Positions 4,022-32,000 are shown, numbered from the stretch's first letter. The stretch is 32,000 nt of DNA from Candidatus Iainarchaeum sp. (GCA_028700115.1 JAQVTI010000001.1:161139-193138), one strand, 5' to 3'. The notes: generated by a model from the letters alone, not told the origin. Made by a program: numbers and translations.

Positions 4022-4054
4022 ATATTAATTATACACCTATAAGTTTATAAATTT

Positions 4055-4108: not shown

Positions 4109-4130
4109 CTAATTAACTAATTAACTAATT
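4099..4130. repeat. 4 x 8-bp perfect tandem repeat (aactaatt)
   Basis: Read directly. It sits immediately after the second motif copy. Confidence 0.85.
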
Positions 4131-4143
4131 AATTAAATAATAA

Positions 4144-4196
4144 AAAAAACTATGCTTTTTGAAAAAGCATAAAACTAATTTTATTTTTATAAAAAA
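4144..4196. repeat. Right copy of the 53-bp direct repeat (with hairpin palindrome)
   Basis: Identical to 2635..2687. Confidence 0.85.
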
Positions 4197-4197
4197 A

Positions 4198-4773: not shown

Positions 4774-4875
4774 AAATAATTAACTCTTTTATATTATAAC
4801 AAATATATAAAAGATAAATAAATTTATAAATAGTAATTTTTATTAAAAAAATAAATTTTTTTAAAGAAAATTCAT

Positions 4876-5619: not shown

Positions 5620-6391
5620 TTATATTTTTTTCACCTAAATTATCTTTTAGTTTCCATTTATCTATATATTTTGATTTTTTATTATTTATATTTAATAAAT
5701 AAGTATTAGATTTGTCTTGAGATAATAAATATTTTAAAAAATAATTAGGTATTTTTAAATTTGTATTTTTAAGTAAAATATCTAAAATATAGCCAGTAAT
5801 TTGATTTTGTCTTTTACTAGAGTATTTTTTATAAATTAATAATAATTTATTCCAATTTATTTTATTTGAACCTAAATATATAGCTTTAGATAAAATAGAA
5901 TAACTACCTATATATTTAAATTTATTAAAACAATCAAATATAGTTTTTTCTAAAGAAGAAATATAAATATTATCTATTCTTATAAAATCATTATAAAAAT
6001 TAGTATTTATATATTTTAGATTATATTCATATAATTTAATATTTTTAGATTTTTTATTAGTAGAAATATATATGTTGAAAGGATGGTAATCTATTAAACC
6101 ATAATAAAATAAAGCAGATGAAAAAGAAATATATCCAGGATATAAATTAGTTGCTATTTCAAAAAGATCATTTATTGAAAAAATATCTTTTTTAATATAA
6201 TTATTTTTTTTAAGATTTAATAAATACCCTTTATCTTTTAATTGTTTTAATAAAAAATTAATCTTATAATTAGAATAATCTTTAAAAGCAGATTTTAAAT
6301 CATTGTTTTTTAATATATTATTCTTTTTTTTAGAATCTATATAGTTATACAAATAATTTTCATTATTTGTTAATTGGTTATTTTTTTGCAT
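5603..6391 (-). CDS. abiEi: AbiEi-like antitoxin / transcriptional regulator
   Basis: 262 aa, immediately upstream of and overlapping the AbiEii gene. The N-terminal segment looks like a wHTH (FLLKQLKDKGYLLNLKKNNY). The call rests mainly on context and size. Confidence 0.6.
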   Translation of the reverse strand: MQKNNQLTNNENYLYNYIDSKKKNNILKNNDLKSAFKDYSNYKINFLLKQLKDKGYLLNLKKNNYIKKDIFSINDLFEIATNLYPGYISFSSALFYYGLIDYHPFNIYISTNKKSKNIKLYEYNLKYINTNFYNDFIRIDNIYISSLEKTIFDCFNKFKYIGSYSILSKAIYLGSNKINWNKLLLIYKKYSSKRQNQITGYILDILLKNTNLKIPNYFLKYLLSQDKSNTYLLNINNKKSKYIDKWKLKDNLGEKNIIDWWY

Positions 6392-13704: not shown

Positions 13705-14592
13705 TTATTTAATTAAAATACTTTTTTTAAGTAAATACAAATATTTATCTAAAACATCTTTTAAAATAAGATCAGATCTTAAAACCACTTCTAAAGAAGA
13801 TAAATTCACATTATTTAATTCTAATTTAGAAATATATTTAAAAAAATCATCTATTTTAAAAGCATTTTTATTATATTCTAAACTTTCATTTATTTTTAAT
13901 AAAACTAAATCTAAAAATAAAGGATCAATTTTAACTAAATCTTTACTTAAAATATACCCAATATCAAAAATATCTCTTAAAGCTAAAAAAGGTCTTGTAA
14001 CTAAAGCTCTATACTTCTCACTTAAATTTTCTCTAATGTCTATACATTCTATCTTAGAAACATCATCTAAAATAGCATCATTTAATTTATCATAAAATAA
14101 ATGATTTATAGTTTTTATTTTAGTATCTAAATAAAGTTTATGCCTAAAAGACACATCTATTTTTATTTGTTGTAAATCTTCAGATAATAAAGATTTATAT
14201 TTTGCATAAACAACTAAGTTAATAATTCTACCATTTTGAGTAATTATTTTCCAACCTTTCCCTAACTCATCACTTACTACTAACCCACATTTTAAGCATA
14301 ATTTATTTATTTCAGACCTTATTTTTTCAGATTTTAATTTTAAAGCTCTATTTGTTAAATTATTTAAATCCTCATTAAAAATAAAATCTAAATCTTCACT
14401 TAATCTATAAAATCCTAAATAACATTTATTTAAACAAGTACCACCTTTAAAAATAAGATTATCAATTTTATTATTAGAAAGTTCAATTAAAAATTTTGTT
14501 AAAAAATAATCTTTTTCTAATAATAGTGAATTAAATTTTTCTCTATTAGAAACTTCAAGTATTAAATTTTTTAAATTAACTTTATCTTCCAT
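13705..14592 (-). CDS. abiEii: AbiEii/AbiGii-family nucleotidyltransferase toxin (second copy, divergent)
   Basis: FKGGTCLNKCY ... LSEDLDF signature. It overlaps the upstream AbiEi-like gene by 22 nt. Confidence 0.8.
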   Translation of the reverse strand: MEDKVNLKNLILEVSNREKFNSLLLEKDYFLTKFLIELSNNKIDNLIFKGGTCLNKCYLGFYRLSEDLDFIFNEDLNNLTNRALKLKSEKIRSEINKLCLKCGLVVSDELGKGWKIITQNGRIINLVVYAKYKSLLSEDLQQIKIDVSFRHKLYLDTKIKTINHLFYDKLNDAILDDVSKIECIDIRENLSEKYRALVTRPFLALRDIFDIGYILSKDLVKIDPLFLDLVLLKINESLEYNKNAFKIDDFFKYISKLELNNVNLSSLEVVLRSDLILKDVLDKYLYLLKKSILIK

Positions 14593-15344
14593 TTAATATA
14601 CCTCAAATCTAAATTAGTATTTCTTATTTTTGTATAATATCTAAACTTATTTAATTTATTTAAATAATCATACAATTTTTCATTTTCTGTAATTATACCA
14701 ATTAATTTTAGTAATTTTATAGAATTTATTTTTTTTGCATATTTAATAAGTTTATTTTCATCAAATTTATCTTTATTTTTTTTAAAAATATAAATTAAAT
14801 GATCTAATGAATCAACATATTTAAAATAATTTAAAGAATCTATAATAGTTTTTTCGATATCAGAAAAAGGACATTTATTTTTAAACACACCAAATAAATT
14901 AGACTTATTTATTTTAATATAATGTATATTAAAATCTAATATTTTTTTTGTTAAATTATACTTAGTATTAAATACAAATAATTTATTAGGAATTTGAGTT
15001 ATAAAACCATATTTATTTAAAGCATTAATTAAACCAATATAATATTTGTTTGAATTTAAATAAAATTCATTAATTTCAAATTCAGAAACAACTGGCTTTC
15101 TATCTATAGAAGATACTGGAATATAAATATAATTATCTTTTTTAATAGAAATTAAATATTTCTGAAATAATAAATATTTAATAAATCTATTTGGATTGTT
15201 TGAATCTATATTTTTTATAATAATATCTAATAATTCATTTTTAGAAATAAAATGTATTTTTTTATATTCTAAAATAGAAATTAACTTCTTGGTCAAATTA
15301 TTAGAAAAGTTGGATTTATTAACCATATGTATTATTTTGACCAA
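14571..15344 (-). CDS. abiEi: AbiEi-like antitoxin (second copy)
   Basis: 257 aa, with the same size, position and overlap geometry as 5603..6391. The call is by context. Confidence 0.55.
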   Translation of the reverse strand: MVKIIHMVNKSNFSNNLTKKLISILEYKKIHFISKNELLDIIIKNIDSNNPNRFIKYLLFQKYLISIKKDNYIYIPVSSIDRKPVVSEFEINEFYLNSNKYYIGLINALNKYGFITQIPNKLFVFNTKYNLTKKILDFNIHYIKINKSNLFGVFKNKCPFSDIEKTIIDSLNYFKYVDSLDHLIYIFKKNKDKFDENKLIKYAKKINSIKLLKLIGIITENEKLYDYLNKLNKFRYYTKIRNTNLDLRYIKWKIKLI

Positions 15345-15410
15345 AAACTATTTAAAAGATATTATTTTTAAAAATAAAGACCTATTTAGAAAAACAGAAA
15401 AAAGAAAAGA

Positions 15411-15693
15411 AAAGAAAACTATTTCTTTCCTGTTATGTAGTTTAACTCTTGTTTTAATTTAAAAATCATATCAGCATAACCATGAGTCATATCAACTATT
15501 GTAAATAAACTCTCTTGAAGATCAGAAATTGGTATGTTTAGTTTCTCTGGTCTAATTACATCTATTGAAGTTACACCATAGTAATAAACTAATCTAAATA
15601 AAGACTGTAAATCTTTACAAGAAACTTCAGCTTCAATATATGTTGAAAACAAACCATCATGAACTACAATTTCTGCAATCTTTGATTCATATA
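15411..15693. repeat. Right copy of the ~283-bp direct repeat
   Basis: See 13349..13631. Confidence 0.85.
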
Positions 15694-16072
15694 CTAAAAA
15701 CTTTTTATCAGATTTTAGTCTTTCTAAAATCTTATTCATTGCATCTTCTAAAGTTGCTTTATTATCTCCTTTAGACTCAATCATAATACTTACTTTAATT
15801 AAGTTTTTATCAGATTCAGAAATTGACTTTCTTGAATCTAACTTTTCTGCAATTTCTTTTGAAATAGAATACTTTGCAGGAAAGCCTTCTCTTTTTATAA
15901 GTTTTAATACAAGCATATTTTTTAGAGTTGCAGTTAAATCTTCATAACTTGCATCTTTAAATTCTTTTTTAAGTTCTTCATCAGTTTTTGGAGACTTATA
16001 AATAGATTTTGCAATTTCTTTTCTTAAATCAAGAATTCTTTTTTGTTTGTCTACATCTACATTTTCAGTCAT
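15419..16072 (-). CDS. Hypothetical protein with an N-terminal wHTH-like region (217 aa); intact parent of fragment 13357..13665
   Basis: Long ORF. TATLKNMLVLKLIKREGFPAKYSISKE looks like a winged-helix recognition region. I do not recognise the C-terminal ~100 aa. Confidence 0.5.
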   Translation of the reverse strand: MTENVDVDKQKRILDLRKEIAKSIYKSPKTDEELKKEFKDASYEDLTATLKNMLVLKLIKREGFPAKYSISKEIAEKLDSRKSISESDKNLIKVSIMIESKGDNKATLEDAMNKILERLKSDKKFLVYESKIAEIVVHDGLFSTYIEAEVSCKDLQSLFRLVYYYGVTSIDVIRPEKLNIPISDLQESLFTIVDMTHGYADMIFKLKQELNYITGKK

Positions 16073-16278
16073 AAATTTTCACATTTTATAATTATCTTAA
16101 ATATTTACACATCTATAAATATATATTAGTTAAGAAACATATAAAAAAGAAAGGTTACTAAGAAATTAATTTAATTAATCAATAAAATCATCTCTAGAAA
16201 GTCTTAAAACATCAAAAGATTTATTTAAAATATAAATTACCTAACAGAACATAGATTTAATAATTTAAAAAAATGAAA

Positions 16279-16391
16279 ATGGATAAAAAAGAAGTAATTT
16301 ATCCATTAAAATGGATAAAAAACACTAAAAAAGCATTTAAAACCACAAAAATGGATAAAAATAAGCTTATTTATCCATTAAAATGGATAAA
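16279..16391. promoter_or_regulatory. Two 41-bp composite repeat units built from the 9-mer ATGGATAAA (direct - N10 - inverted - N4 - direct), 72-bp period, upstream of the ATPase gene
   Basis: Direct copies are at 16279, 16311, 16351 and 16383. Inverted copies (tttatccat) are at 16298 and 16370. The spacing is identical in both units. The downstream gene itself starts ATGGATAAT (16442). An AT-rich TATA-like stretch lies at about 16407..16425. Confidence 0.5.
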
Positions 16392-16441
16392 CTTAAAAAG
16401 ACAACTATATATAATATATATAAAACTAAAATAAGATAAAT

Positions 16442-17725
16442 ATGGATAATTATAATTATATACTTAAATCTGAAAGAAAAAAAGAAAAACTATTAGATGA
16501 AATTAAAAATTATAATGAAAGAAACATAGTTACAGAAATCAGAGAAGAAATTAAACTTTATAAAAATAAAAAAAATAAAAGAATATTCTTATTTTATGGA
16601 CTTAGAGGGATTGGAAAATCAACTGCATTATTACAAATTATAAAAGAAAATAAAGATGCAATGTATATTGATGGTACAGAAATATCTTATTATAATCTAG
16701 AACTTATAAAAGTTATAGAAGAATACAAAAAAATAAATAAATCAAATATATTAATTATAGATGAATTAAATGATATACCTAATTGGGGAAAAGCACTTAA
16801 AATATTATATGATTCTGAGAATTTAAAAATAATTGCAACAGGATCTTCGGCAATAAAAATATCACAAGAAATAAAAGAAATAATTAGAAGATCTAAAATA
16901 AAAAAACTGCAAGCTTTAAGTTTTAAAGAATTTTTAAAATTAAAATACAATATAGAATACAATATCACAAATGAAATTAAAGATATATTATTTTCAAAAA
17001 AAGAAGACGCATTTATAAAAATTAAAAATTTAAATTTAGATATACTTAAAAAAAATCAAGATATTGAAAAACATTTCAGAGAATACATATATGAAGGCAT
17101 ACCTTTAATGATTAACACAGGGGAAAAAATACAAGACATATCTCAAAATATAATTTATAAAATAATAGTAGATGATTTTAAAAATATTACAGGATTTAAT
17201 ATTAAAACTATAGATAAATCTAAAAAAATTATTAGAGCAATTGCAGAAGCAAAACCAGGACACACTTCTTTTAAAAATTTAAGTGATAACTTCGATATAT
17301 CCGCAACTACAATTTCTGAAATTATAAATGCATTTAAAATATCTGAATTAATTATAGAAACTTATGTTAATAAAAAATCAATGGCAAAATACAGAAAAGA
17401 ACCTAAAATTTTATTTAGCTCTTCAGCAATAAGATATGGATTATTATTAAATAATTTTGATGAAACAGATATTGGAACACTTAGAGAAGATGCTTTTGTT
17501 TCAAATATAATATATAGTGGATTAAATGTAAATTATATTGCAGAAAATAAAAAAACACCTGATTTTGAAATAAGTGATGACAAAAATAAAGTTATTGTAG
17601 AAATAGGTGGACAAAATAAAAAAACTAAACAGATCAAAAAAGGTTTTATAATTACAGAAAGTAATAAAATAGATATTATAAACAATGTGATATACATGCC
17701 TTTATACATGGTTTGTTTAATATAA
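16442..17725 (+). CDS. AAA+ ATPase of the archaeal ATPase / DUF4143 type (second copy)
   Basis: 427 aa. Walker A is GLRGIGKST, Walker B is LIIDELND. The C-terminus has TPDFEI ... VIVEIGG, analogous to 2678..4021. Confidence 0.75.
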   Translation: MDNYNYILKSERKKEKLLDEIKNYNERNIVTEIREEIKLYKNKKNKRIFLFYGLRGIGKSTALLQIIKENKDAMYIDGTEISYYNLELIKVIEEYKKINKSNILIIDELNDIPNWGKALKILYDSENLKIIATGSSAIKISQEIKEIIRRSKIKKLQALSFKEFLKLKYNIEYNITNEIKDILFSKKEDAFIKIKNLNLDILKKNQDIEKHFREYIYEGIPLMINTGEKIQDISQNIIYKIIVDDFKNITGFNIKTIDKSKKIIRAIAEAKPGHTSFKNLSDNFDISATTISEIINAFKISELIIETYVNKKSMAKYRKEPKILFSSSAIRYGLLLNNFDETDIGTLREDAFVSNIIYSGLNVNYIAENKKTPDFEISDDKNKVIVEIGGQNKKTKQIKKGFIITESNKIDIINNVIYMPLYMVCLI

Positions 17726-20820: not shown

Positions 20821-22080
20821 TTATTTTAGATCAGACTCAATCAATGTATAAGTTTCCCAAACTATAAATTCTATAAATTTATAGATAATTTTACAAAATC
20901 TAATATCCACACCATCTGGACAATGATTAATTTTTTGAGAAACATATCTACAGCCACCTCTACAAAGACCAATACCAATACAATTTTTACATTCTGGAAG
21001 AACATAAGATCCTATCCTTACCCAATTTTTAAATAAATCAATTTTATCCAAATCATAATTATTATATATATTTCCAGGAAAATAATTTAAATCTCCTAAA
21101 AAACTTTGACAAGGGCCTATATTCCCTGTAGGATCAACAACTATTTGACATTTATTACAAGGACAATGATGATAACCAATTTTTTGATTTATAAAACGAT
21201 ATAATAAAATTGAATAAAAATTATCAAAAACACCATGCTTTCTAGTAAAAGTTTTAAATAATTCAAAATATTTATTTAAAAGATAATCTAAATTAGTATA
21301 ATCAAAATTAATAACATCTAAAGGTAAAGGAAAATTAATAAATATCTTATTTAAGTTTTTAAAATTTAATAAATATTTTATTTGAGATTTAAAACAATCT
21401 ATATTTTGTAAATTCAAAGTAAATGAAAAAGTATAATTTACACCACACTTAATTAATAAATTTATATTTTTTAATAAAATATTATAATTTAAGCCAAGTC
21501 TATTTTTTTCAGAAACAAATTCATCTCCATCAACAGAAATTGATAAATTAACATTATATTTTTTAAAAAACAAAATCATGTCTTCATTTAATAAAATACC
21601 ATTAGTAATAATATTTATAGTACTCCCTTTATTTTTTAAATTAATTAATTTATTCCAATAAATAATACTTATTTTAACAACTGGCCAATTCAATAAAGGT
21701 TCTCCACCATATATATTTAAAATAAATCCTTTAGAATTAGATTTATTGGCATAATAATTTAAAAATAAATTAATGGCTTTTTTTGCAGTTGAAGTACTCA
21801 TAAAATAATTTTTAATATTAATGGAACTTTTTTGCAATCTATTTTTAATAAAACAATAGTTACAATTTAAATTACAATCTAAAGTTGGAATCAAATAAAA
21901 TATATGGGGTCTAAATTTATACTTATTTAATTTATCTTTACCTTCTTGAAATAAATTTTTATTAACATACAATTTATCATAAATTTGATTTTTATTTTTA
22001 CTATATGCTGTTTTTAAAGTAAACCTATTAAATCCAGCCCAAATTTTTCCTTTTTTAAAATAAAATATTTGATTATCCAT
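20821..22080 (-). CDS. Radical SAM / SPASM-domain protein (peptide-maturase type), 419 aa
   Basis: CNLNCNYCF (CX3CX2C). GGEPLL. The C-terminus HHCPCNKCQIVVDPTGNIGPC ... CKNCIGIGLCRGGC ... FC is a SPASM auxiliary-cluster pattern. Confidence 0.85.
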   Translation of the reverse strand: MDNQIFYFKKGKIWAGFNRFTLKTAYSKNKNQIYDKLYVNKNLFQEGKDKLNKYKFRPHIFYLIPTLDCNLNCNYCFIKNRLQKSSINIKNYFMSTSTAKKAINLFLNYYANKSNSKGFILNIYGGEPLLNWPVVKISIIYWNKLINLKNKGSTINIITNGILLNEDMILFFKKYNVNLSISVDGDEFVSEKNRLGLNYNILLKNINLLIKCGVNYTFSFTLNLQNIDCFKSQIKYLLNFKNLNKIFINFPLPLDVINFDYTNLDYLLNKYFELFKTFTRKHGVFDNFYSILLYRFINQKIGYHHCPCNKCQIVVDPTGNIGPCQSFLGDLNYFPGNIYNNYDLDKIDLFKNWVRIGSYVLPECKNCIGIGLCRGGCRYVSQKINHCPDGVDIRFCKIIYKFIEFIVWETYTLIESDLK

Positions 22081-23092
22081 CTAAATCACATTTAAAATAT
22101 TCAAATAATTTTTTGAAAAAAAGGCAATAATAGCTAGATGGATTTAGATTCCCATTTTGAACAAAAGAAGCATATAAACAACCACCTCTACAAATATAAT
22201 TTAAATCGCAATTTTTACAACTTTCGAAATTATTTACAGATCTATTTTTAAATAACTCCAAATTTTCATTAAATCCACTATAAATATCTCCAATTTTAAA
22301 AAAAGAATTATCAACCCCCACATGGCAAGAATAAATCTCTCCTTTAAAGTTAAAAACAAAACGATTTCCACAAGCAGTGCAATAAAAACAATTTTTTGAA
22401 ATAAAATTTTTTTTAAAATTATAAAGAGTATATTCAAAAATATTATTTTCAATTAATAAATTATACACCTTAACTAAATTAGAAGTATACATGTCTAAAA
22501 AATCAATATTATATAAATTATTTAAAGGTATTATATAATTAAAATATAATTTTTTAATTTTCAACCTTTTAAAAAAAGCGACTAATTTTTTTGGATAGTT
22601 TAAATTATGGTCACTCAAAGTACAACTTATCACATAATCTTTCTTTAATTTATTACATAAATTTATAGAATTAATTACTTTTGAAAAAACGGAATTATTA
22701 TTAAAATCAACTCTCATTTCATCATTCATAAATTTACTCCCATCTAAAGAAATTGCAATAAATACATTTAATTTTTTTAACAAATTTATTTTATATTCAT
22801 CTAATAAAAGTCCATTCGTAGTCAAAGAAATAGTATAATTTTTAAAAATAGATTTAATTTTAAAAATTATAAATAATAATTTTTCAAAAAAAAGTAAAGG
22901 CTCACCTCCGCATAAATCAAAATTAATATGTTTATTTTTAAATTCAACATCATTTTTAATAAAATTTAAAATTTCTAAAAGTTTAAAATTAGACATTTCA
23001 AATAATTGCACAGAAGAAACATAACAATATTTACATTTTAAATTACACTTATTAGAAATCATTAATTTAACATCAACTGAACTTAAATTCAT
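22073..23092 (-). CDS. Radical SAM / SPASM-domain protein, 339 aa
   Basis: CNLKCKYCY. GGEPLL. The C-terminus is CFYCTACGNRFVFNFKGEIYSC ... CKNCDLNYICRGGC ... YC. It overlaps the downstream gene by 8 nt. Confidence 0.85.
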   Translation of the reverse strand: MNLSSVDVKLMISNKCNLKCKYCYVSSVQLFEMSNFKLLEILNFIKNDVEFKNKHINFDLCGGEPLLFFEKLLFIIFKIKSIFKNYTISLTTNGLLLDEYKINLLKKLNVFIAISLDGSKFMNDEMRVDFNNNSVFSKVINSINLCNKLKKDYVISCTLSDHNLNYPKKLVAFFKRLKIKKLYFNYIIPLNNLYNIDFLDMYTSNLVKVYNLLIENNIFEYTLYNFKKNFISKNCFYCTACGNRFVFNFKGEIYSCHVGVDNSFFKIGDIYSGFNENLELFKNRSVNNFESCKNCDLNYICRGGCLYASFVQNGNLNPSSYYCLFFKKLFEYFKCDLDG

Positions 23093-23780
23093 TAAATTTC
23101 ACTATTTCATTATTTATTTTAAAAGGTAATAAATTTAACTCTTTTAAAATACAATATTCTACATCTTTTTTAAACCCACAACTAATTAAATATTTAGCTG
23201 CAGGCGATTCATATAATAAATCCACTAAAATTGATTTATATTGTATAACCAAATTAAGAGCATTTAAAGATAATTCATCCAATTTTTTAAAATTTAGGCT
23301 TGAAATAAATACACCTGCACAAATAAAATCATCCATGCAAATCACATCTTTATTTCCACCTATAATTAAATAAATGTTTCTATCACTAAAATATTTATTA
23401 AAAATATAACTTGCATATTTCAAATTAATTAATCCAATTAAAAAAATATTATCAGAATTAGATTTTAATAGAGCTTTAGATCCAAAACCAGAAATATAAT
23501 ACACATATTTACCACTTAAATCAGATAAATACTCTAATGGAGAATTACCTTTATCAAAAAAATTTATTTTTGAACAATTTTCTTCCCCACAAAATAAAAA
23601 ATTTTTTTCTTTAGGTATTTGCAAAATATCTAATTTAGAACTAAATAAATTTATTTTAGCAGCATTATTTTTAATACAATTACAAATAACTGATGAAGAT
23701 CGAAAAACATCTATTACAACAACTAAATCTAGTTTTCTAGAAGGTATATTATCTAAACCATAAATTAATTTAATATTCAT
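23073..23780 (-). CDS. ComB-family (2-phosphosulfolactate phosphatase-like) protein
   Basis: VVVIDVFRSSSVI near the N-terminus, then GNSPLEY, DDFICAGVFIS and a C-terminal KKDVEYC..LNLLP. These are collinear with ComB-family conserved blocks. It overlaps both neighbours (20 nt and 4 nt). Confidence 0.75.
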   Translation of the reverse strand: MNIKLIYGLDNIPSRKLDLVVVIDVFRSSSVICNCIKNNAAKINLFSSKLDILQIPKEKNFLFCGEENCSKINFFDKGNSPLEYLSDLSGKYVYYISGFGSKALLKSNSDNIFLIGLINLKYASYIFNKYFSDRNIYLIIGGNKDVICMDDFICAGVFISSLNFKKLDELSLNALNLVIQYKSILVDLLYESPAAKYLISCGFKKDVEYCILKELNLLPFKINNEIVKFNEFKFS

Positions 23781-25012
23781 ATATTTTTCTTCTTAAATTT
23801 TAAAATAACATAATCTAATAAATCAAATTCTTTAGAAAACATTTTAGAAATTAAAATAAAATTTGATTTATTTAAAATATTTATTAAAGATTCTGTATAG
23901 TCTACAGAAATATTAGATAAAATTAATACAAAAAATCCATCTTTTTTCAAAATTTTAAAACAATTTTTAAAGATACATAATAAATTTTCATCAAATGTTT
24001 TAGAATCCATAATATCTAAAGAATCAAAATTAAATTTATTTAAATAATTTAAATTAATCCAAGATAAATGCAAATATGAATTACAAGCATAAGATATATC
24101 TTTATAATAAGGAGGATCGCAAATTATACAATCAACTAAATTATTTTTTAAATTTAAATTTTTTGAATCATCTAAAATTAATTGCAAATGATTTAAATCT
24201 AAATTAAATTTATTAATTTCGCATTTTAAATCAATTGCTTTTTTTATTTTATTAAGAAAGCCAAACCATATATTAAAATTAACATACACCTCTGGAACTT
24301 TAAATGTATTAATTGTTTTCCAACGATTGTTATTTTTTAAAATATTTAATTTACTAGATTTACCTAGATTTGAACTAAAAATAAATTTAAAATAATTTTT
24401 AACATCTTCACATTTTATTTTATCAATAAATTCTAATAGGAGACACAATCCAATAAGATTTCGTTGTGAATACAAATCTTTAATAAAATTTACATTTGAA
24501 TTAAAATTTGCAGGAATTTTATTATTTGGAATATATTTATTATTGTAATTAAAATCGTCAAAACTATTTAAAATAAAATTAGGAGGTGTATTTTTTTTAA
24601 TTATAGAATTACATTTTGGACAAAAAAAAGAAGTAAAATTATTAATTACAAATGAATAAACTATTAAATTAGAACCACAACAATTACAACATTCTTTTGA
24701 TTTATATAATTTAAAAAAAATTGGTTTTAATAAATTTATATTCTTAAATTCTAAATTTAATTTATCAATAGTAATATTTTTTAATGTTTCAGTAACTATA
24801 AAATGACTTAATGGAGTAACATCTACCCCAATTACCTTTCTATTTAATATTAATGATTCAATAATAGTAGTTCCAGACCCCATAAATGGATCTAATATTA
24901 AACTATTTTCAGATGTATTTTCTAAAATCACCTTTTGAACAATTCCCCAATATTTACGTCCATTAAAAGGATGTAAGCTATATCTATTAGTTTCAATTAT
25001 ACTAATACCCAT
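23777..25012 (-). CDS. SAM-dependent N6/N4-type (DPPY) methyltransferase with an internal Zn ribbon
   Basis: An N-terminal DPFMGSGTT (motif I) is followed by VIGVDV. The Zn ribbon is CCNCCGS ... CPKCNS. ICDPPYY (motif IV) lies near the C-terminus. The architecture recalls archaeal Zn-ribbon adenine methylases (COG1743-like). Confidence 0.7.
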   Translation of the reverse strand: MGISIIETNRYSLHPFNGRKYWGIVQKVILENTSENSLILDPFMGSGTTIIESLILNRKVIGVDVTPLSHFIVTETLKNITIDKLNLEFKNINLLKPIFFKLYKSKECCNCCGSNLIVYSFVINNFTSFFCPKCNSIIKKNTPPNFILNSFDDFNYNNKYIPNNKIPANFNSNVNFIKDLYSQRNLIGLCLLLEFIDKIKCEDVKNYFKFIFSSNLGKSSKLNILKNNNRWKTINTFKVPEVYVNFNIWFGFLNKIKKAIDLKCEINKFNLDLNHLQLILDDSKNLNLKNNLVDCIICDPPYYKDISYACNSYLHLSWINLNYLNKFNFDSLDIMDSKTFDENLLCIFKNCFKILKKDGFFVLILSNISVDYTESLINILNKSNFILISKMFSKEFDLLDYVILKFKKKNI

Positions 25013-25014
25013 AT

Positions 25015-26175
25015 TTAATCACTATTAATTAATAAATAAACTTTATTTATATCAGAATATATTTCTAACATTATAAAATATATTAGTTCTTTCCAAAACA
25101 CACAATATTTTTTCCCAAAAAAATAAGATTTTGCAAAACAATTACAACTCAAAAAGTTTTTAAAAATACAACTATTACAAATTGAAATATTTTTAAAATA
25201 ATTAATTATAAAAATATTATTTAAAGAAAAATTATTAATATTAAATTTATTAATATTACCCATTTTAAATTTATTATATTCTAAAAAATAATCACAAGGA
25301 TAAATATCACCTAATACATTTACAGCAATTAATTTAGTGCCAGCACCACAATTTAACTTATTACAATTATCAGTATCTATATTAAATAATAATTTCTTTA
25401 ACAAATTAGAAAATGTTAATTCATATATTTTAAAACTATTAGTTAAATTATTATTTATAATTAGAAAAAATAATTTTTTATAAAAATTAAATAAATCTGA
25501 AGAATCATAACTAAATTTTTTAGAATCAATTAAATTTATTTTAAATAATTTTATTTTAAATTTTTTATAAAAATTAAATAAAATTTCTGGATTTTTAATA
25601 GATTTATAGTTTAAAACAGAAATAACAGTAGGTTCAAAATTTAATGAATGACATAATTTAATAGAATTAGAAACTTTAGAAAAATCAATTCTATAAACGT
25701 CATTATAAATTTTTGGACCATCAATAGAAATAGATAAATTCACATTATATTTTTTTAAAAATAAAATCATAGATCGATTTAATAAAGTTCCATTTGTTTG
25801 AATACTAAAAGTAATATTTTTTTTATTTTTAAATTTAAGAATAATAGATTTAATTTTATCAAATTCTAATAATGGTTCTCCACCATGAAATATAATTTGT
25901 AAAGATTTATTATATTGTGAAACCATTTTACAAAAAGAATTAATTACAGAATCTTTAATTAAAATATTATTTTTAGTAGAATAACAATACTTACAATTTA
26001 AATTACAATTTTTTGTGATTTTAAAAATAATCACAAAAGGAATTTCAAAGGAATTAATATCTAAAAAAGGCATTAATTTTAAATTATCAAGAGTATTAGA
26101 AACACCCCAACTACAAATAGATTTAAAAATAAAATTATTTTTATAAGAATCTATTTCTAAATAATTATTAATCAT
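25015..26175 (-). CDS. Radical SAM / SPASM-like protein, about 386 aa
   Basis: CNLNCKYCY. HGGEPLL. The C-terminus NCNKLNCGAGTKLIAVNVLGDIYPC ... CNSC ... CNC ... YC is a variant SPASM with CNC in place of GGC. The track ORF extends to a TTG at 26184. I prefer the ATG at 26175 because it sits 2 nt after the precursor stop. Confidence 0.8.
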   Translation of the reverse strand: MINNYLEIDSYKNNFIFKSICSWGVSNTLDNLKLMPFLDINSFEIPFVIIFKITKNCNLNCKYCYSTKNNILIKDSVINSFCKMVSQYNKSLQIIFHGGEPLLEFDKIKSIILKFKNKKNITFSIQTNGTLLNRSMILFLKKYNVNLSISIDGPKIYNDVYRIDFSKVSNSIKLCHSLNFEPTVISVLNYKSIKNPEILFNFYKKFKIKLFKINLIDSKKFSYDSSDLFNFYKKLFFLIINNNLTNSFKIYELTFSNLLKKLLFNIDTDNCNKLNCGAGTKLIAVNVLGDIYPCDYFLEYNKFKMGNINKFNINNFSLNNIFIINYFKNISICNSCIFKNFLSCNCFAKSYFFGKKYCVFWKELIYFIMLEIYSDINKVYLLINSD

Positions 26176-26177
26176 AA

Positions 26178-26303
26178 TTAACAATTATTTATAGGCCACC
26201 CAGTACCTAAACATTTTTGATTAATATCTAATTTATCAAATAATTTTTTAAGCACACTTTTATCTGGTACTTTCAAATTATTAGATTTATATTTATCCAA
26301 CAT
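26178..26303 (-). CDS. Candidate RiPP precursor peptide B (41 aa, not in ORF track)
   Basis: Translated codon by codon: MLDKYKSNNLKVPDKSVLKKLFDKLDINQKCLGTGWPINNC. SD-like GTGAGGT lies 4 nt before the ATG, with TTTATATATA further upstream. The stop is 2 nt before the radical SAM ATG. The putative core is a local GC-rich patch in very AT-rich DNA. Confidence 0.5.
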   Translation of the reverse strand: MLDKYKSNNLKVPDKSVLKKLFDKLDINQKCLGTGWPINNC

Positions 26304-26359
26304 AAAACCTCACATATATATAAATATTATAAGTAAAAATATTTATAAATAAATCTGTT

Positions 26360-26460
26360 TTAAAAATAAGCATAGCTAAATAAAAATACTATTAAAAAAG
26401 TAAATATAATATATATTATCTTTTTATTCATAAACCTTATTCTTCAGACATATTATTATA
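26360..26460 (-). pseudogene. Remnant of an M6-protease array junction: last ~8 codons of one copy, a 5-nt spacer, and a 23-codon signal-peptide stub of the next
   Basis: 26402..26458 matches 31314..31371 with about 2 mismatches. The stub translates MNKKIIYIIFTFLIVFLFSYAYF*, against MNKNIIYIIFIICFLFSFSYVYAY of the intact protease. The upstream stub reads NNMSEE*, against NNMSGE*. Confidence 0.6.
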
Positions 26461-26482
26461 TAAAATAGAAAATAATATGCAA

Positions 26483-26812
26483 TTACACAAATATATATGC
26501 AAAGTTATCTACAAAATCAATTTTAACATTAATATTACTAACCCTATAATTTTTTACAAAAGACGGTTTAAAAATCAAAGGAATATTTAGCTCTTGTGCA
26601 ATTATAGTAGCATGAGATAAAAGTCCACCATTACTTACAATTATTGCAAGTGGATTTAAAGAATTAATTTTAATAAAATGTACAGGCAACACATAATCAA
26701 TTACAAGAATTTCATTATATTTCAAATTATCTAAATTATTTATACGCCCACTTATAGATGAATTATTACTTTTAACCCAAACATCACCTTTATATACACA
26801 CTCATTTTTCAT
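26483..26812 (-). CDS. Stand-alone PEP-utilising-enzyme mobile (swivel phosphohistidine) domain protein
   Basis: 109 aa. ILVIDYVLPVHFIKINSLNPLAIIVSNGGLLSHATIIAQELNIPLIF matches the PEP_utilizers domain pattern (ILV...T.P......aaGivt..Gg..SHaaivARelgiP), including the catalytic His in SHA. Confidence 0.65.
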   Translation of the reverse strand: MKNECVYKGDVWVKSNNSSISGRINNLDNLKYNEILVIDYVLPVHFIKINSLNPLAIIVSNGGLLSHATIIAQELNIPLIFKPSFVKNYRVSNINVKIDFVDNFAYIFV

Positions 26813-27436
26813 TTAAATCACTTTAAAATCATTTAATTTTAAATAAACATAAATCAAACCTAACACAAAATCTTCTTCATTAGAAATATATTTTAAAAAA
26901 TCTACATCGGCAATATCTTTAGAGATATAATCATCAATTACTTTATTTGAATCAACATAATTTAAAAAAATATTTATAAAATTATATTTTTCATTTGGAT
27001 ATGATAATATAAAATTTTCAAATAAATATCTAAAATTATTATAGAAATAAAATATATTTATAAATTTAAAATTAACAGATTTATCTAAAAGTTTAGATTT
27101 ATATTTTTCAAATATTAATATTTGATAGGCCTCATAATCAATCAATAGATTATAAATAAAATTAACATCCTTAGATTTTAAATTATTAAATATTTTTTTT
27201 CTTATATTAATTAATTTAAATTTTAAAAAGTCAAATTCAAAATTATGATTTTCTAATAAGTTATATAAATATTCAGAAATATAAATTTCATGTTCTAAAT
27301 CATTTTTTTTATAATTTATGTGATTTAAATTTATATTTAATATATTACAAATTCTATTAAAAGAATTAACCATTATATTTATTGTAATTAAAGAATTTCT
27401 AACTAATAAAAATCCTCTTACTTTTATATATTTCAT
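26813..27436 (-). CDS. Hypothetical protein (207 aa), directly abutting the swivel-domain gene
   Basis: The ORF's last base is directly followed by the next gene's start (26813/26812). It is extremely N/I/K/F/Y-rich. I recognise no motif. Confidence 0.45.
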   Translation of the reverse strand: MKYIKVRGFLLVRNSLITINIMVNSFNRICNILNINLNHINYKKNDLEHEIYISEYLYNLLENHNFEFDFLKFKLINIRKKIFNNLKSKDVNFIYNLLIDYEAYQILIFEKYKSKLLDKSVNFKFINIFYFYNNFRYLFENFILSYPNEKYNFINIFLNYVDSNKVIDDYISKDIADVDFLKYISNEEDFVLGLIYVYLKLNDFKVI

Positions 27437-27446
27437 ATTTTCTTTT

Positions 27447-28754
27447 TCAAATTTTCTTTTTCAAATTTTCTTTTGCAATTTTTAAAATTAACTTACGAAT
27501 AATTTTTTTATATAATTTACAATTATCCAAATCTAATTGATAAATATTCAAATCTTTCCCTTTGGTTTTATTAACAATACATCCTCCGCCACATAAAGTT
27601 AAACCAATACAATTCCAACAATTTAAAATATTAAAAGTAGATCTTTTATTCCATGTATCCCAAATATAATCTTTAGTAAAATCATATTTCAAAGAAATAT
27701 CATTTAAATTTTTTTCAAAATAAGTTTTATGCTTCCAATCATAACCGTGACAGATACCAATTTTACCACTAGGTAGTACAACTAATTGATTGCCCATACC
27801 CGCACAATCTTTAACATAAAATCTTTTAAATACAATAGCTAAAAAACGCCTATAATAAATTCTATCTTCCAAAATATTTTTTTTAGTCAATATATTAATC
27901 ACATCAAACAAATCATCAATAAACTTATCATCAAAAACCATTTTTTGTTTGTGTAATAAATTAAAACTAAAAGACATTTTAGTATCTAAATTTTTTACAA
28001 AATGTTTAATATCCCTAATATTATCTTTAGTTAAAGTATAAGAAACAGACACGGGTATTTTTTTAGAAATTAATAAATCAAATCCTTTTTTAATTTCTAA
28101 ATACATATTTTTATTATTATGATTAACTCTATTAGAATTAGTTTTAGAACTAAATCCATCTATAGAGATTCCTACAGACACATTATATTTTTTAAATAAA
28201 TTTACATATTTTAAATCTAATTTAACCCCGTTAGTTACTATTATTATATTCGCATTTTTTTTGAAAATAGAATATATTTTTTCTAAAGTAAATTTAACTA
28301 AATTATAATCTAATAATGGTTCTCCACCATATAAAATAATTTTCTTTTTTAATTTACTTTTTTGATTTTTGTAAAGCTTCAAAGCTTTAATAATATGTTC
28401 TTTTTTAATTGAAATATTATCAAAATAATCTTTTACAAAACAATATTTACAATTTAAATTACATTTAGAATGCAACAGTAAATACATAACATGTATTCCA
28501 TAATCTTTTTGAGATAAGATTATTTTACTTTTTTTATAAAAATAATCTAAAAAATTAGTATTTTGATCAACTAAAAAGTCTAATTCAATTAAATCAACAT
28601 CAATATCTATAGAACTAGATAAAACTCCTTTTTTATAAATTTTTAAAAGTTTAGTTAATAAAATATAAATTTCTTGAGAAAATGGATTATATAAAACTGT
28701 ATATTTATCATCCAATTTGATTAATTTTACAAATGGATTTAAAATATATATCAT
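27447..28754 (-). CDS. Radical SAM / SPASM peptide maturase with an N-terminal PqqD-like RRE-type region
   Basis: CNLNCKYCF. GGEPLL. The C-terminus is CAGMGNQLVVLPSGKIGIC ... CWNCIGLTLCGGGC ... NC. The N-terminal VKLIKLDDKYTVLYNPFSQEIYILLTKLLKIYKKG looks like a PqqD/RRE leader-binding motif. The track ORF starts at a TTG at 28772. I prefer the ATG at 28754. Confidence 0.85.
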   Translation of the reverse strand: MIYILNPFVKLIKLDDKYTVLYNPFSQEIYILLTKLLKIYKKGVLSSSIDIDVDLIELDFLVDQNTNFLDYFYKKSKIILSQKDYGIHVMYLLLHSKCNLNCKYCFVKDYFDNISIKKEHIIKALKLYKNQKSKLKKKIILYGGEPLLDYNLVKFTLEKIYSIFKKNANIIIVTNGVKLDLKYVNLFKKYNVSVGISIDGFSSKTNSNRVNHNNKNMYLEIKKGFDLLISKKIPVSVSYTLTKDNIRDIKHFVKNLDTKMSFSFNLLHKQKMVFDDKFIDDLFDVINILTKKNILEDRIYYRRFLAIVFKRFYVKDCAGMGNQLVVLPSGKIGICHGYDWKHKTYFEKNLNDISLKYDFTKDYIWDTWNKRSTFNILNCWNCIGLTLCGGGCIVNKTKGKDLNIYQLDLDNCKLYKKIIRKLILKIAKENLKKKI

Positions 28755-28762
28755 ATAAATAC

Positions 28763-28906
28763 CTAATAACAACTGCTACAAGGACAATCAGAGCCACACC
28801 CACAATCACAATGACACACAGAACACATAATTTCATTTAATTTTTTTTCATTCATTTCTTTTTTATCTTGAAATGTATTAAAAATATCTCTTGAATCTAA
28901 TCTCAT
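28763..28906 (-). CDS. Candidate Cys-rich RiPP precursor peptide A (47 aa, not in ORF track)
   Basis: Translated codon by codon: MRLDSRDIFNTFQDKKEMNEKKLNEIMCSVCHCDCGCGSDCPCSSCY. There are 8 Cys in the last 20 residues. SD AGGTG lies 6 nt before the ATG, with a TTTATAT box further upstream. The stop is 8 nt before the radical SAM ATG. The core is a conspicuous GC-rich island (28765..28826). Confidence 0.6.
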   Translation of the reverse strand: MRLDSRDIFNTFQDKKEMNEKKLNEIMCSVCHCDCGCGSDCPCSSCY

Positions 28907-28953
28907 AGAAAACACCTAATTATATATAACTAAACAAATATAAATTTAACTAA

Positions 28954-28989
<36 letters not shown>

Positions 28990-28995
28990 TAAACC

Positions 28996-31347
28996 TTATT
29001 CTCCAGACATATTATTGTTGTTTGCAGAATAAACATGACATATATAAAGTAATAAGTCTTCTTGTGTTTCTTGATTGTAATCATCTGTAACTGTTAAACT
29101 AATATGTTTGTTTGTACAGATGTTCTCATAGTTTAAAGTTTGTGTTAAAAGAGATTTTGGATTTTGTAAAAAGTTTAAAGTGTTATTTGTTTGAGAAACA
29201 TTTGTTTTGTTTATAAAAATATTATTTAATATTTTATTTTGTGAGCTAAATGCTTGTGAAATGTTTTCAATAGTAAATTCACAATCATTACTTAAGATGT
29301 TTTGTGAATCATTATCTTTCCATTCACAACTATATTCACCTACATTGTTTTTTATAGTTGTTTCAAATGAAAGAGTATCTTCATATGTATGGTTAGATAA
29401 ATCTTTAGGAGAAACAATAGTTGCATCAAGTCCACTAAACTCTAAAGAGATAACATCTTCTGAAACTCTACCTTCTTCATCTTCACCTATTAATGTCATT
29501 GTATGCACACCAGGAAAAATACCTAGTTCTTGAGCAGTTGCAATAAAGTCACATTCATCACTTAAAGAAACAGGGTTATCTGTATCATTATCTAAAACCC
29601 AATCACAAGTTACTTGACCTGTTGGGTTTTCATGTTCTTCTATAAATAAAATATCTTCGTCTTGATCGTATTGTGTATTATTTATTGGAGAGTCTATTGT
29701 TACAATAAATTTTAATCTACTTTGTAGATACACAGGCATTGTGTGTTGTGAGACATCTAAGGCTTCAACTGCAACTTCTGTATCTACTAAACCGTTGTAA
29801 GTGTAAGAAGTATTATCGTAAGTTGCAGTACTATATAATCTTTGAACATTATCAAATCTACCAAAATGATCTTCAAATAAATCGTCTAATTCAATAGTAT
29901 ATAAAGATGTTTGAAAATAAGTTTCATTAGTTTGATCGTGTATCATATTTGCTTCAAAAACAATTCCTGGATGTGTATCGTTATCATCGTACATTATACC
30001 ATCTGGATCCCACATTATACTATTTGTTGGATATTGTTCTTCTATATATTCTTCATCTATATGATAAATTGTAACTCCGCCATGATAATTTGGTGTATTT
30101 GGATCTCTATACCAAAACATCCATTTATCTTGTGTACTTTCATCCATAAATCTATTTGCAACTAAAAAGTATTCTCGATCATACATTTTAGTTTCATCTT
30201 GTAAAACATATGCAATAGGAGTATCATCTAAAGTTGGCAGATTATAAAAACCAGCATCTTGTGAACCGATAATGGTTGGATTAATCCAACCAAAAAAAGT
30301 CTTTGACCAAACATCAAAATTTATTGGAAAATTAGGATTTCCATCAGTCTGAGACATCATAGATAAATTCCAAAGTCCCATTCCTAAATGTAAACCATTA
30401 TGATGTTCATATAAATCAGGAACTCCTAAAATATGTCCAAATTCATGAACTAAAGTATTTAATTCAAATCTACAATCTGTAGGATGACCATAATTTGAAT
30501 TATGACCTTCACAAACAAAATCATCAAGTTCAGAAGCAACAACATACATATTTCCTAAAAAAGTATCATCTCTATTATAACTAGAACCATTCATAATTCT
30601 AGTATGGTCTTTAAATTGATTTGTTGCTTCTCCAGATCTTATTAAAATAAGACCTTCCATTCTACCGTCATTATCAGCATCATATTGACTAAAATCAACT
30701 TCTGGATCAACAAGATCTAAAAGATCCATAAACATTTGAAATTGTGTTGAGTTATTTGTTTTGTAATATTCAAAAGTTTCTGGAAGTTCATACCAATCTT
30801 CATAAACATCAAATGTTAAATGTAAATTTCCATAAGACTCGTGTAGATAATAATCAGAAACACTAATTCCATTTTCATCAAGATAATTTGGATCATTATA
30901 AGCAGCATTAATATCTTCAAAAGTTATATCTTCTTTATGAAGTTGATCTGAAAACTCAACCATAAAAACAGGAATTGTAAAATTTCCTTCTGTAGGACAA
31001 GTTCCCCAGATATTTTCTACAGAAGTAAAATTATCTTTTGGTGAGATTGGAATTAAGTTTTTTGTATATTCTTTTACATCTGCTTTACTACAAATACCAG
31101 GAGGATAATAAACATCTCCAAAAGAAATACCACCACAATCATTTTGATTTAAATCAAAATTTGGATTGATTTGAGAAATGTTTGAAATATTATTATTTGC
31201 ACTAATTGTTATATTTGGATTTATATTAGTAGAAGGTTTATTTTGAGAAACATAGTTTAAAACATTTGTTGAAGAATAAGCATAAACATAGCTAAATGAA
31301 AATAAAAAACAAATGATAAATATAATATATATTATATTTTTATTCAT
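28996..31347 (-). CDS. Secreted M6 (immune inhibitor A-like) family zinc metalloprotease with C-terminal Ig/PKD-like repeats
   Basis: 783 aa. The signal peptide is MNKNIIYIIFIICFLFSFSYVYAYS. LVHEFGHILGVPDLYEH matches the M6 HExxHxxGxPDxY signature. There are two related C-terminal about 90-aa Cys-pair modules (C.W...D....LS..C.F). Confidence 0.7.
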   Translation of the reverse strand: MNKNIIYIIFIICFLFSFSYVYAYSSTNVLNYVSQNKPSTNINPNITISANNNISNISQINPNFDLNQNDCGGISFGDVYYPPGICSKADVKEYTKNLIPISPKDNFTSVENIWGTCPTEGNFTIPVFMVEFSDQLHKEDITFEDINAAYNDPNYLDENGISVSDYYLHESYGNLHLTFDVYEDWYELPETFEYYKTNNSTQFQMFMDLLDLVDPEVDFSQYDADNDGRMEGLILIRSGEATNQFKDHTRIMNGSSYNRDDTFLGNMYVVASELDDFVCEGHNSNYGHPTDCRFELNTLVHEFGHILGVPDLYEHHNGLHLGMGLWNLSMMSQTDGNPNFPINFDVWSKTFFGWINPTIIGSQDAGFYNLPTLDDTPIAYVLQDETKMYDREYFLVANRFMDESTQDKWMFWYRDPNTPNYHGGVTIYHIDEEYIEEQYPTNSIMWDPDGIMYDDNDTHPGIVFEANMIHDQTNETYFQTSLYTIELDDLFEDHFGRFDNVQRLYSTATYDNTSYTYNGLVDTEVAVEALDVSQHTMPVYLQSRLKFIVTIDSPINNTQYDQDEDILFIEEHENPTGQVTCDWVLDNDTDNPVSLSDECDFIATAQELGIFPGVHTMTLIGEDEEGRVSEDVISLEFSGLDATIVSPKDLSNHTYEDTLSFETTIKNNVGEYSCEWKDNDSQNILSNDCEFTIENISQAFSSQNKILNNIFINKTNVSQTNNTLNFLQNPKSLLTQTLNYENICTNKHISLTVTDDYNQETQEDLLLYICHVYSANNNNMSGE

Positions 31348-31352
31348 AAACC

Positions 31353-32000
31353 TTATTCTCCAGACATATTATTATTGTTTGCAGTATATTCATGACAAAT
31401 ATACAATAATAAATCTTTTTGTGTTTCTTGATTATAATCATCTATAACTGTTAAAGATATATTCTTATAATTACAGATGTTCTCATAGTTTAAAGTTTGT
31501 GTTAAAAGAGATTTTGGATTTTGTAAAAAGTTTAAAGTATTATTTGTTTGTCCAAGATTTAATTCATTTACAAAAATATTTTGTAAAACTTTATTTTGTG
31601 AGCTAAATGCTTGTGAAAGATTATTAAGTTCAAAATCACAATCATTACTTAAAATATTTTGGGAATCTTGATCTTTCCATTCACAACTATATTCACCTAC
31701 GTTGTTTTTTATAGTTGTTTCAAATAAAAGAGTATCTTCATATGTATGGTTAGATAGATTTTTAGGAGAAACAATAGTTGCGTCAAGTCCACTAAACTCT
31801 AAAGAGATAACATCTTCTGAAACTCTACCTTCTTCGTCTTCACCTATTAATGTCATTGTATGCACACCAGGATAAATACCTAGTTCTTGAGCAGTTGCAA
31901 TAAAGTCACATTCATCACTTAAAGAAACAGGGTTATCTGTATCATTATCTAAAACCCAATCACAAGTTACTTGACCTGTTGGGTTTTCATGTTCTTCTAT
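31353..32000 (-). CDS. 3' part of a second tandem M6-like metalloprotease paralog (partial, continues beyond the window)
   Basis: The frame stays open from 31353 to the window edge. The track shows only the part from an internal Met at 31865. The translation IEEHENPTGQVTCDWVLDNDTDNPVSLSDECDFIATAQELGIYPGVHTMTLIGEDEEGRV... is near-identical to residues about 568-783 of the 783-aa protein. Confidence 0.75.
   Translation of the reverse strand: MEEHENPTGQVTCDWVLDNDTDNPVSLSDECDFIATAQELGIYPGVHTMTLIGEDEEGRVSEDVISLEFSGLDATIVSPKNLSNHTYEDTLLFETTIKNNVGEYSCEWKDQDSQNILSNDCDFELNNLSQAFSSQNKVLQNIFVNELNLGQTNNTLNFLQNPKSLLTQTLNYENICNYKNISLTVIDDYNQETQKDLLLYICHEYTANNNNMSGE

Follow-up and report, generated by a model that had tools for sequence, protein, structure and literature searches.

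Does the packed run of genes at 20821-28906 in this DNA of Candidatus Iainarchaeum sp., a DPANN archaeon, form one pathway for a peptide that is made by ribosomes and modified after translation (RiPP), or do several systems lie here side by side? The whole stretch that was analysed, 32,000 nt in length, is called the window. A first-pass annotation had described the run as a single RiPP-like cluster of ten genes, comprising four radical S-adenosylmethionine (rSAM) enzymes with SPASM domains, two short open reading frames (ORFs) thought to encode precursor peptides, and accessory enzymes. Comparison with related loci did not uphold the single cluster and instead indicates that the locus is two independently recurring modules, the full ten-gene set having been found nowhere else. 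The explanation that we favour, and consider probable, is that two separate rSAM RiPP-type modules have been brought together within a tandem array of secreted M6 peptidases.

The ORF listing of the window gives ten tightly packed ORFs on the minus strand, which are joined by overlaps of 8, 20 and 4 nt and gaps of 2, 2, 0, 10 and 8 nt. There are two larger intergenic gaps, 179 nt ahead of preB and approximately 90 nt ahead of preA, where preA and preB are the short ORFs (Table 1). This arrangement, junctions included, agrees with the first-pass annotation and with independent gene calls: all ten genes, including both small ORFs, are called on the source metagenome-assembled genome contig (GCA_028691725.1) and on a Logan contig. 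The GC content is 18-19% across the cluster and 23% across the whole window, and the flanks carry archaeal genes for an S-layer protein, RtcB and a type IV ATPase. No tRNA genes or Rfam families were found in the window. As both small ORFs and both gene blocks were found again in other genomes, the arrangement is more than a chance one.

Module A (28906-26483) consists of preA, rSAM1, a gene for a 207-aa protein and one for a stand-alone phosphohistidine swivel domain. Module B (26303-20821) consists of preB, rSAM2, a DPPY methyltransferase with a zinc ribbon, a ComB-family phosphatase, rSAM3 and rSAM4. Module A occurs without module B in the related loci L003-L010, L016 and L030, and the rSAM1 orthologues fall into five clusters of 46-53% identity, all on DPANN-like archaeal contigs; the context of a more distant rSAM (P0014) was uninformative. 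Conversely, L019-L022 lack module A within 10 kb of module B. Here, all six module-B genes are collinear with those of the window and have the same spacing, in different flanks and at 47-67% identity (rSAM2 56%, methyltransferase 47%, ComB 50%, rSAM3 47%, rSAM4 56%). In L023, orthologues of rSAM2 (40%), the methyltransferase (41%) and ComB (46%) are followed by an unrelated gene, so that these three genes stand together in three of three lineages.

A relic of a junction between M6 genes lies in the 179-nt spacer that separates the swivel gene from preB. It is 99 nt long and 86% identical to the genuine junction at 31277-31375; its signal-peptide stretch ends in a stop after 23 codons. A junction core of approximately 36 nt is repeated at 28985-29018, after an M6 gene. 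As copies lie at 26361-26459 and 28985-29018, module A is bracketed by direct repeats, and this, together with the relic in the spacer, suggests independent insertion. The first-pass annotation had secreted M6 proteases flanking the cluster, and the window has tandem secreted M6-like paralogues at 28996-31347 and 31353-31994, upstream of preA. In L019-L022, an M6 peptidase gene lies two genes downstream of module B (L019 14237-16672), and its product shares 43.5% identity over 639 aa with that of the first paralogue; the M6 association has therefore been kept despite rearrangement. Module-A relatives are without an M6 neighbour. Both modules are 4-8 GC points below their flanks in all genomes examined except L016. 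In our reading, each module inserted independently into the M6 array or replaced members of it. The M6 peptidase may be a functional partner, which could for example remove leaders outside the cell, or merely a conserved neighbour.

As an observation on the junction itself (gene end, stop, GGTTT, ATG, signal peptide), the window has three copies of it, at 26361-26459, 28985-29018 and 31277-31375. An (AAT)9 microsatellite at 28958-28985 follows the relic ATG of the junction in the preA promoter region.

Both putative precursors are conserved at the protein level. The preA peptide has a leader, MRLDSRDIFNTF..., and a core, CSVCHCDCGCGSDCPCSSCY, with eight Cys within 20 residues. Homologous Cys/Ser-rich peptides are encoded directly upstream of the rSAM1 orthologues in four other lineages (L016, L003/4, L007 and L008/9), and such an ORF precedes rSAM1 in every contig that extends upstream. 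The family shares the N-terminal leader M-I-V/L-x-K-N-D-I-x3-F followed by a Cys/Ser-rich core, the C-terminal end of which reads ...CDCSCGCGGDCACGSCY in the closest relative and ...CDCGCGSDCPCSSCY in the window. No NCBIfam or Pfam family matched preA, including the models for SCIFF (six-cysteines-in-forty-five) and other precursors. Profile searches of Pfam and NCBIfam were likewise negative for preB, which has a homologue in L019-L022, a 38-aa ORF (MKKLDNVVVPKKSVLKKLYDKLEINKNSLGTGWSVNNC) that is 67% identical over 36 aa and lies upstream of the rSAM2 orthologue. The 36 aligned codons comprise 17 identical, 7 synonymous and 12 nonsynonymous pairs, and the DNA upstream is unalignable. The conserved leader of preB is VP.KSVLKKL.DKL. 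Each small ORF was originally credited with a Cys-bearing C-terminal half. This is true of preA with its eight-Cys core, whereas in preB only the terminal Cys is conserved, the internal Cys of the window peptide being Ser in the relative.

Gene calling at the precursors is uneven. For preA-like peptides, the public gene calls are in the wrong frame at L016 1143-1259 and L008 9879-10004, resulting in pseudo-peptides that are hydrophobic and V/I-rich; a different frame holds the true Cys-rich ORFs, one of which starts at GTG. Automated annotation therefore misses this precursor family. In L019 (7483-8778), preB and rSAM2 are in one reading frame, a TGA and four codons apart, and are annotated by JGI as a single 431-aa product, where the ENA assemblies call two.

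The four large enzymes are rSAM/SPASM proteins, as had been proposed. All carry CX3CX2C (at residues 104, 60, 16 and 69 across the four), GGEPL and C-terminal SPASM-type cysteines, and all match PF04055 with 50-78 bits. The SPASM motif is the canonical CX2CX5CX3C in rSAM1, rSAM3 and rSAM4; rSAM2 has the variant CX2CX7CXC and, despite this, is the one that reaches the Pfam SPASM family PF13186 (22 bits, cut-off 21.5). Pairwise identity among the four is only about 30%. Their strong NCBIfam matches are exclusively peptide maturases (FibroRumin, PapB, SCIFF, DynA, HxsB and cyclophane synthases), none of the four reaching a curated NCBIfam cut-off. The top scores are 155.7 for FibroRumin (TIGR04136, cut-off 400; rSAM1) and 137 for PapB (NF047865, cut-off 340), the SCIFF maturase model (TIGR03974, cut-off 425) gives 76-107 with a best of 106.8, and the anaerobic sulfatase maturase model (TIGR03942, cut-off 349) gives at best 126.4; all of these are likenesses below membership. 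A scan of viral contigs with rSAM4 gave no match.

One of these enzymes had been assigned a PqqD/RRE-like N-terminus, where RRE stands for RiPP recognition element. An AlphaFold2 model of rSAM1, built from 15 sequences, has a pLDDT of 86, and its N-terminal domain consists of four short strands and three helices. Full-length alignments of the model were obtained with TigE (8VPO), CteB (5WGG) and SuiB, all of them maturases bearing an RRE, the best folds being TigE and CteB. TigE is a cyclopropylglycine synthase (PMC10878394). The model supports a predicted RRE-like N-terminus in rSAM1; Pfam PqqD matched the N-terminus of none of the four enzymes.

The 207-aa protein of module A, at first described as unknown, can be placed through the related loci. 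Over 203 aa, it shares 33% identity (E 2.5e-23) with residues 4-200 of a 406-aa protein of L016, which follows the rSAM there and has a C-terminal half with HSDLHLKN...IDLE, matching the kinase-like proteins of L003, L007 and L008. Such proteins of 369-406 aa lie downstream of the rSAM in four lineages, and their C-terminal halves, with HGDLHLKN...IDLE, match APH (27 bits, cut-off 23.2), TCAD9 and RIO1. A five-sequence alignment shows the motif I..I.Y.AY......K in the 207-aa protein and all four kinase-like proteins. Because of this motif and the match to L016, the 207-aa protein is identified by homology as the N-terminal half of a kinase-like protein from which the catalytic half has been deleted, the swivel gene now abutting its stop codon. 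The HxDLxxxN catalytic loop and the metal-binding IDxE/DFG, present in the L016, L003, L007 and L008 proteins, are absent from it. The link surfaced only via the intermediate L016 protein and the five-sequence alignment: the 207-aa protein has no Pfam match, a word-index search of a 5.8-billion-protein database returned only itself, hhalign against three kinase-like proteins was insignificant (probability 0.6%), and a single-sequence AlphaFold2 model (pLDDT 46) was unusable and was not used.

The swivel domain retains an intact phosphohistidine motif, GGLLSHATIIAQE. In the closest relative (L016, L030), a 112-aa homologue, 43% identical, occupies the same position after the kinase-like protein. 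The partner domains PPDK_N and PEP-utilizers_C are absent from the swivel protein and its neighbours, and a word-index search with the domain returned only itself.

Several features of the module-A relatives were recorded alongside. In three lineages, a GNAT (Acetyltransf_3) acetyltransferase, which is not in the window, adjoins the preA/rSAM/kinase-like module on a varying side (L003 9232-9747, L007 2990-3505, L008 9210-9731); tailoring and self-protection are possible roles for it in module A. The L016 and L030 loci carry a class I methyltransferase. Both contigs, which come from independent assemblies of the closest relative, end at an identical position 31 nt past the swivel gene, which suggests a repeat or strain-variable junction, and one of the samples, SRR22315502, is numbered next to the window's Logan sample, SRR22315503.

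The module-B methyltransferase is a member of the N6A/N4C DNA methyltransferase superfamily and has an N-terminal motif I (FMGSG at residue 43), a four-Cys zinc ribbon of two CxxC pairs and DPPY at residue 299, in that order. Both orthologues keep FMGSG, DPPY and the four zinc-ribbon cysteines. Matches in the PDB are DNA methyltransferases and cover motif I only. A restriction enzyme was found neither in the window nor in L019-L022. The ComB-like protein keeps the family-invariant D24, R27, S29, CGE, FD.GNSP and D151 and matches 2YYV and 1VR0 in the PDB; it is below every NCBIfam equivalog cut-off (TIGR00298 91.5 vs 175), and none of the coenzyme M genes ComA, ComC and ComDE is in the window or in L019-L022. 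A HMMER search of 1.84 billion representatives gave just two close clusters with E values under 1e-30, one 50% and the other 46% identical. Both sit in module-B loci; the next matches are ordinary ComB proteins of at most 39% identity, and the context of a more distant one (P0027) was uninformative. The rSAM2 scan of genome contigs was dominated by low-complexity K/N-rich patterns and gave only distant or partial rSAM matches, and the scan of metagenome contigs with the methyltransferase alignment had the same problem and gave only partial motif-I matches; both missed known relatives and are therefore uninformative on how rare the modules are.

Table 1. Features of the locus, from module A to module B, and the adjoining peptidase (window coordinates)
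Feature	Position	Strand	Description
preA	28763..28906	-	putative precursor peptide, 47 aa, ATG start; alternative GTG start at 28915
rSAM1	27447..28754	-	radical SAM maturase, 435 aa; SPASM domain, predicted N-terminal RRE-like domain; PF04055 78 bits
207-aa protein	26813..27436	-	homologous to N-terminal half of kinase-like protein; catalytic half absent here
swivel	26483..26812	-	stand-alone phosphohistidine swivel domain, 109 aa; PF00391 35.4 bits (cut-off 23.1)
M6-junction relic	26361..26459	-	between modules A and B; last codons, stop, GGTTT, ~23 signal-peptide codons
preB	26178..26303	-	putative precursor peptide, 41 aa; conserved C-terminal LGTGW[PS][IV]NNC
rSAM2	25015..26175	-	radical SAM/SPASM, 386 aa; PF04055 + PF13186; top NCBIfam PapB 129 bits (cut-off 340)
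methyltransferase	23777..25012	-	411 aa; PF01555 56.4 bits (cut-off 26.7); N6A/N4C DNA methyltransferase superfamily
ComB-like	23073..23780	-	hydrolase, 235 aa, 2-phosphosulfolactate phosphatase fold; PF04029 129.4 bits (cut-off 26.4)
rSAM3	22073..23092	-	radical SAM/SPASM, 339 aa, without N-terminal extension; best match PapB 137 bits (cut-off 340)
rSAM4	20821..22080	-	radical SAM/SPASM, 419 aa; best match FibroRumin 129.7 bits (cut-off 400)
M6-like metallopeptidase	28996..31347	-	secreted, directly upstream of preA; weak PF05547 match, HEFGH motif

The chemistry that we infer for the two modules is as follows. In module A, the predicted RRE of rSAM1 would bind the preA leader, and rSAM1 would then cross-link the eight-Cys core, most likely through thioethers of the sactipeptide or ranthipeptide kind; the affinities to SCIFF and PapB make thioethers the most plausible product. 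In the relatives, the presence of a kinase-like protein and a swivel domain points to phosphotransfer on the Ser/Thr-rich core, a step that the kinase-like protein may add with or without the swivel. Because the catalytic half of the kinase is missing here, this step has probably been lost or altered in this genome. In module B, the three SPASM enzymes would install cross-links or other radical modifications on the preB core of approximately nine residues. Enzymes with DPPY or NPPY methylate amino or amide nitrogens, and the DPPY enzyme could N-methylate this core, with a side-chain amide of the conserved Asn-Asn as the candidate target. The ComB-type enzyme would then hydrolyse a phosphoester on the intermediate.

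The RiPP-like reading survived those checks, named in advance by the first-pass annotation, that were run. The small ORFs proved to be conserved in homologous loci, preA in the four other lineages and preB with its synonymous codon changes; the rSAM enzymes lie outside defined non-RiPP families, their best matches being peptide maturases, far under cut-off; and accessory genes accompany the rSAMs elsewhere too, with rSAM2 joined by the methyltransferase and ComB in every module-B lineage and rSAM1 by the swivel in the closest relative.

Several points weigh against the two-module reading as it is set out here. No product, modification or expression has been observed for either module. Module B is present in three lineages only and module A in about five, all of them DPANN metagenome contigs, and shared descent could explain part of the synteny. 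After ComB, L023 lacks rSAM3 and rSAM4. With the PADLOC model for type II methyltransferases, the methyltransferase aligns almost from end to end, and DNA could be its substrate. Module B has no kinase to supply the ComB substrate, an RRE was demonstrated for none of rSAM2, rSAM3 and rSAM4, and module A may be decaying in this genome, given the truncation of its kinase-like protein. Neither module contains a transporter, an immunity gene or a dedicated leader peptidase, just as the first-pass annotation had it.

Other explanations of the locus were weighed on the same evidence. A single ten-gene pathway, in which all four rSAMs work with the accessory enzymes on the two peptides or towards one shared product, would account for the tight packing of all genes on one strand and for the phosphotransfer theme of both halves, with a kinase N-half and a swivel in A and a phosphatase in B, and the contigs of the closest module-A relative stop too soon after the swivel gene (31 nt) to show what follows. 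Against this, the halves recur separately and never together among the loci found, L019-L022 being without module A within the 10 kb around module B, and in the window they are divided by the 179-nt gap with its M6-junction relic, with direct repeats around module A; we consider such a pathway distinctly unlikely. The methyltransferase and the ComB-like protein could instead be an orphan DNA methyltransferase and a small-molecule phosphatase, passengers that, in a compact genome, merely share a transcript with a RiPP operon of three rSAMs. The superfamily of the methyltransferase, with its near full-length type II match, would fit this, as would the lack of a kinase in module B and the fact that the sole characterised ComB-family activity acts on a small molecule. 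However, passengers would not be expected from the rSAM2-methyltransferase-ComB order, with its overlapping or abutting ORFs, which has been kept in three lineages at 40-56% identity while the flanks differ, nor from a ComB clade whose only two other 50%-identity clusters, among all the representatives searched, are both in these loci; nor were restriction enzyme or coenzyme M genes found nearby. Their being passengers is unlikely, and is the strongest of the rivals.

The rSAM/SPASM enzymes could also mature a protein, for example the adjacent secreted M6 peptidase or some other enzyme, in the manner of anaerobic sulfatase maturases, the small ORFs being incidental. Here, rSAM2 and rSAM3 score 110-126 bits on the anaerobic sulfatase maturase model, and an M6 peptidase adjoins the system in two lineages. 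These scores are far under the cut-off of 349 and below the peptide-maturase matches, both small ORFs are conserved as proteins directly upstream of their rSAMs in several lineages, and the module-A relatives have no M6 neighbour, all of which makes protein maturation highly improbable. A different product for module B, a peptide-derived cofactor or signal like PQQ (pyrroloquinoline quinone) or mycofactocin rather than an antibiotic-type RiPP, is a tentative idea to which we give a small chance, about that of the ten-gene pathway. In such a case, the C-terminal GTGW[PS][IV]NNC of preB would be rebuilt by the three SPASM enzymes, the DNA-methyltransferase-derived enzyme would methylate a peptide amide or amine nitrogen, and the ComB-family enzyme would strip phosphate from a phosphorylated or phosphoenolpyruvate (PEP)-derived adduct, for example on the terminal Cys. 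If true, both enzyme families would gain a new chemistry, and a DPANN archaeon with a reduced genome would make a dedicated biosynthetic product. A reading of the locus as a defence system was rejected, PADLOC having given only generic sub-family matches to pVip and type II methyltransferase models.

Elsewhere in the window, there are two large proteins of surface type, one of 959 aa with DUF285 repeats (10369-13248) and one of 851 aa with an S-layer outer domain (6597-9152). An accessory set is present twice, at 2678-6391 and 13705-17725, and comprises an AAA_14/DUF4143 ATPase and a nucleotidyltransferase toxin of AbiEii type, which has a partner ORF upstream. Both copies are in stretches of very low GC (15-19%), and the region around them looks like an accessory-gene island. 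The rSAM1 orthologue of L017 is likewise followed by an AAA_14/DUF4143 gene.

Returning to the two rSAM RiPP-type modules, it is notable that two precursor genes and four genes for SPASM rSAMs have been retained in a DPANN archaeon, a group with very small genomes. With the conserved block made up of rSAM2, the DPPY methyltransferase and the ComB-like phosphatase, RiPP tailoring would reach into two enzyme families so far unlinked to peptides. In module A and its relatives, a Cys/Ser-rich precursor stands with an rSAM, an atypical kinase and, in some cases, a phosphohistidine swivel, which is an undescribed combination. Both precursor families and their leader/core boundaries are defined well enough for direct heterologous expression.

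How do these modules compare with known systems? To our knowledge, no archaeal rSAM-modified peptide has been characterised, and the first-pass annotation was aware of no characterised RiPPs from the DPANN-like group. A genome survey has already predicted antiSMASH-type rSAM RiPP clusters across archaeal superphyla, including DPANN, with none characterised (PMC12144867). The first-pass annotation also did not recognise the accessory set from any described RiPP class, and our literature searches agree: among the RiPP systems described, they found none that includes a phosphatase of the ComB family, a swivel domain of PEP type or the kinase-like partner seen here.

Of the known systems, SCIFF, the ranthipeptides and FibroRumin come nearest. 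Module A resembles the SCIFF system, in which a precursor of approximately 45-50 aa with a Cys-rich C-terminal core is encoded directly upstream of an RRE-bearing rSAM-SPASM enzyme, the RRE of rSAM1 being a predicted one. CteB, with which the rSAM1 model aligns, is a thioether-forming rSAM-SPASM maturase of this system. The differences are that the SCIFF model scores of 76-107 bits are far under the cut-off of 425, preA matches no SCIFF model, the kinase-like protein and swivel are not in SCIFF loci, and the host here is archaeal. A likeness to the ranthipeptides (PapB/freyrasin) comes from PapB, which ranks first or second among the profiles for each of the four rSAMs, and, by inspection, from the C-x2-D motifs (CGSD, CGGD) of the preA cores, which resemble Cys-Asp thioether sites. 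Here too the top PapB score is far below its cut-off; the literature search found no ranthipeptide clusters with ComB-like, DNA-methyltransferase-like, kinase-like or swivel partners. FibroRumin is the top NCBIfam match of rSAM1 and rSAM4 and aligns over almost the whole SPASM enzyme, but this is a bacterial system, the scores are under its cut-off and a homologous precursor was not detected.

Kinase-dependent tailoring of RiPPs is known from the APH-like kinases of class V lanthipeptides and thioamitides and from the lasso-peptide kinase of paeninodin. By description, the module-A relatives resemble these in that an APH/RIO-like kinase domain (HGDLHxxN...IDLE) is encoded beside a Ser/Thr/Cys-rich core. 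They differ in that no lyase or cyclase was detected, and the partner of the kinase is an rSAM, to which the closest relative adds a PEP-type swivel; in the window, the catalytic half is absent. PQQ (PqqA/PqqE) and mycofactocin (MftA/MftC) are made by peptide-derived cofactor pathways, which share with the modules a short precursor with a few invariant C-terminal residues, one or more SPASM rSAMs with tailoring enzymes, and the lack of a transporter or immunity gene. The homology does not extend past the SPASM superfamily, no peptidase, oxidase or other Pqq or Mft component is present here, and the system here is limited to a few DPANN lineages. Taken together, these likenesses and differences indicate that the locus would be best described as rSAM RiPP-type systems with unprecedented accessory enzymes, rather than as a new category.

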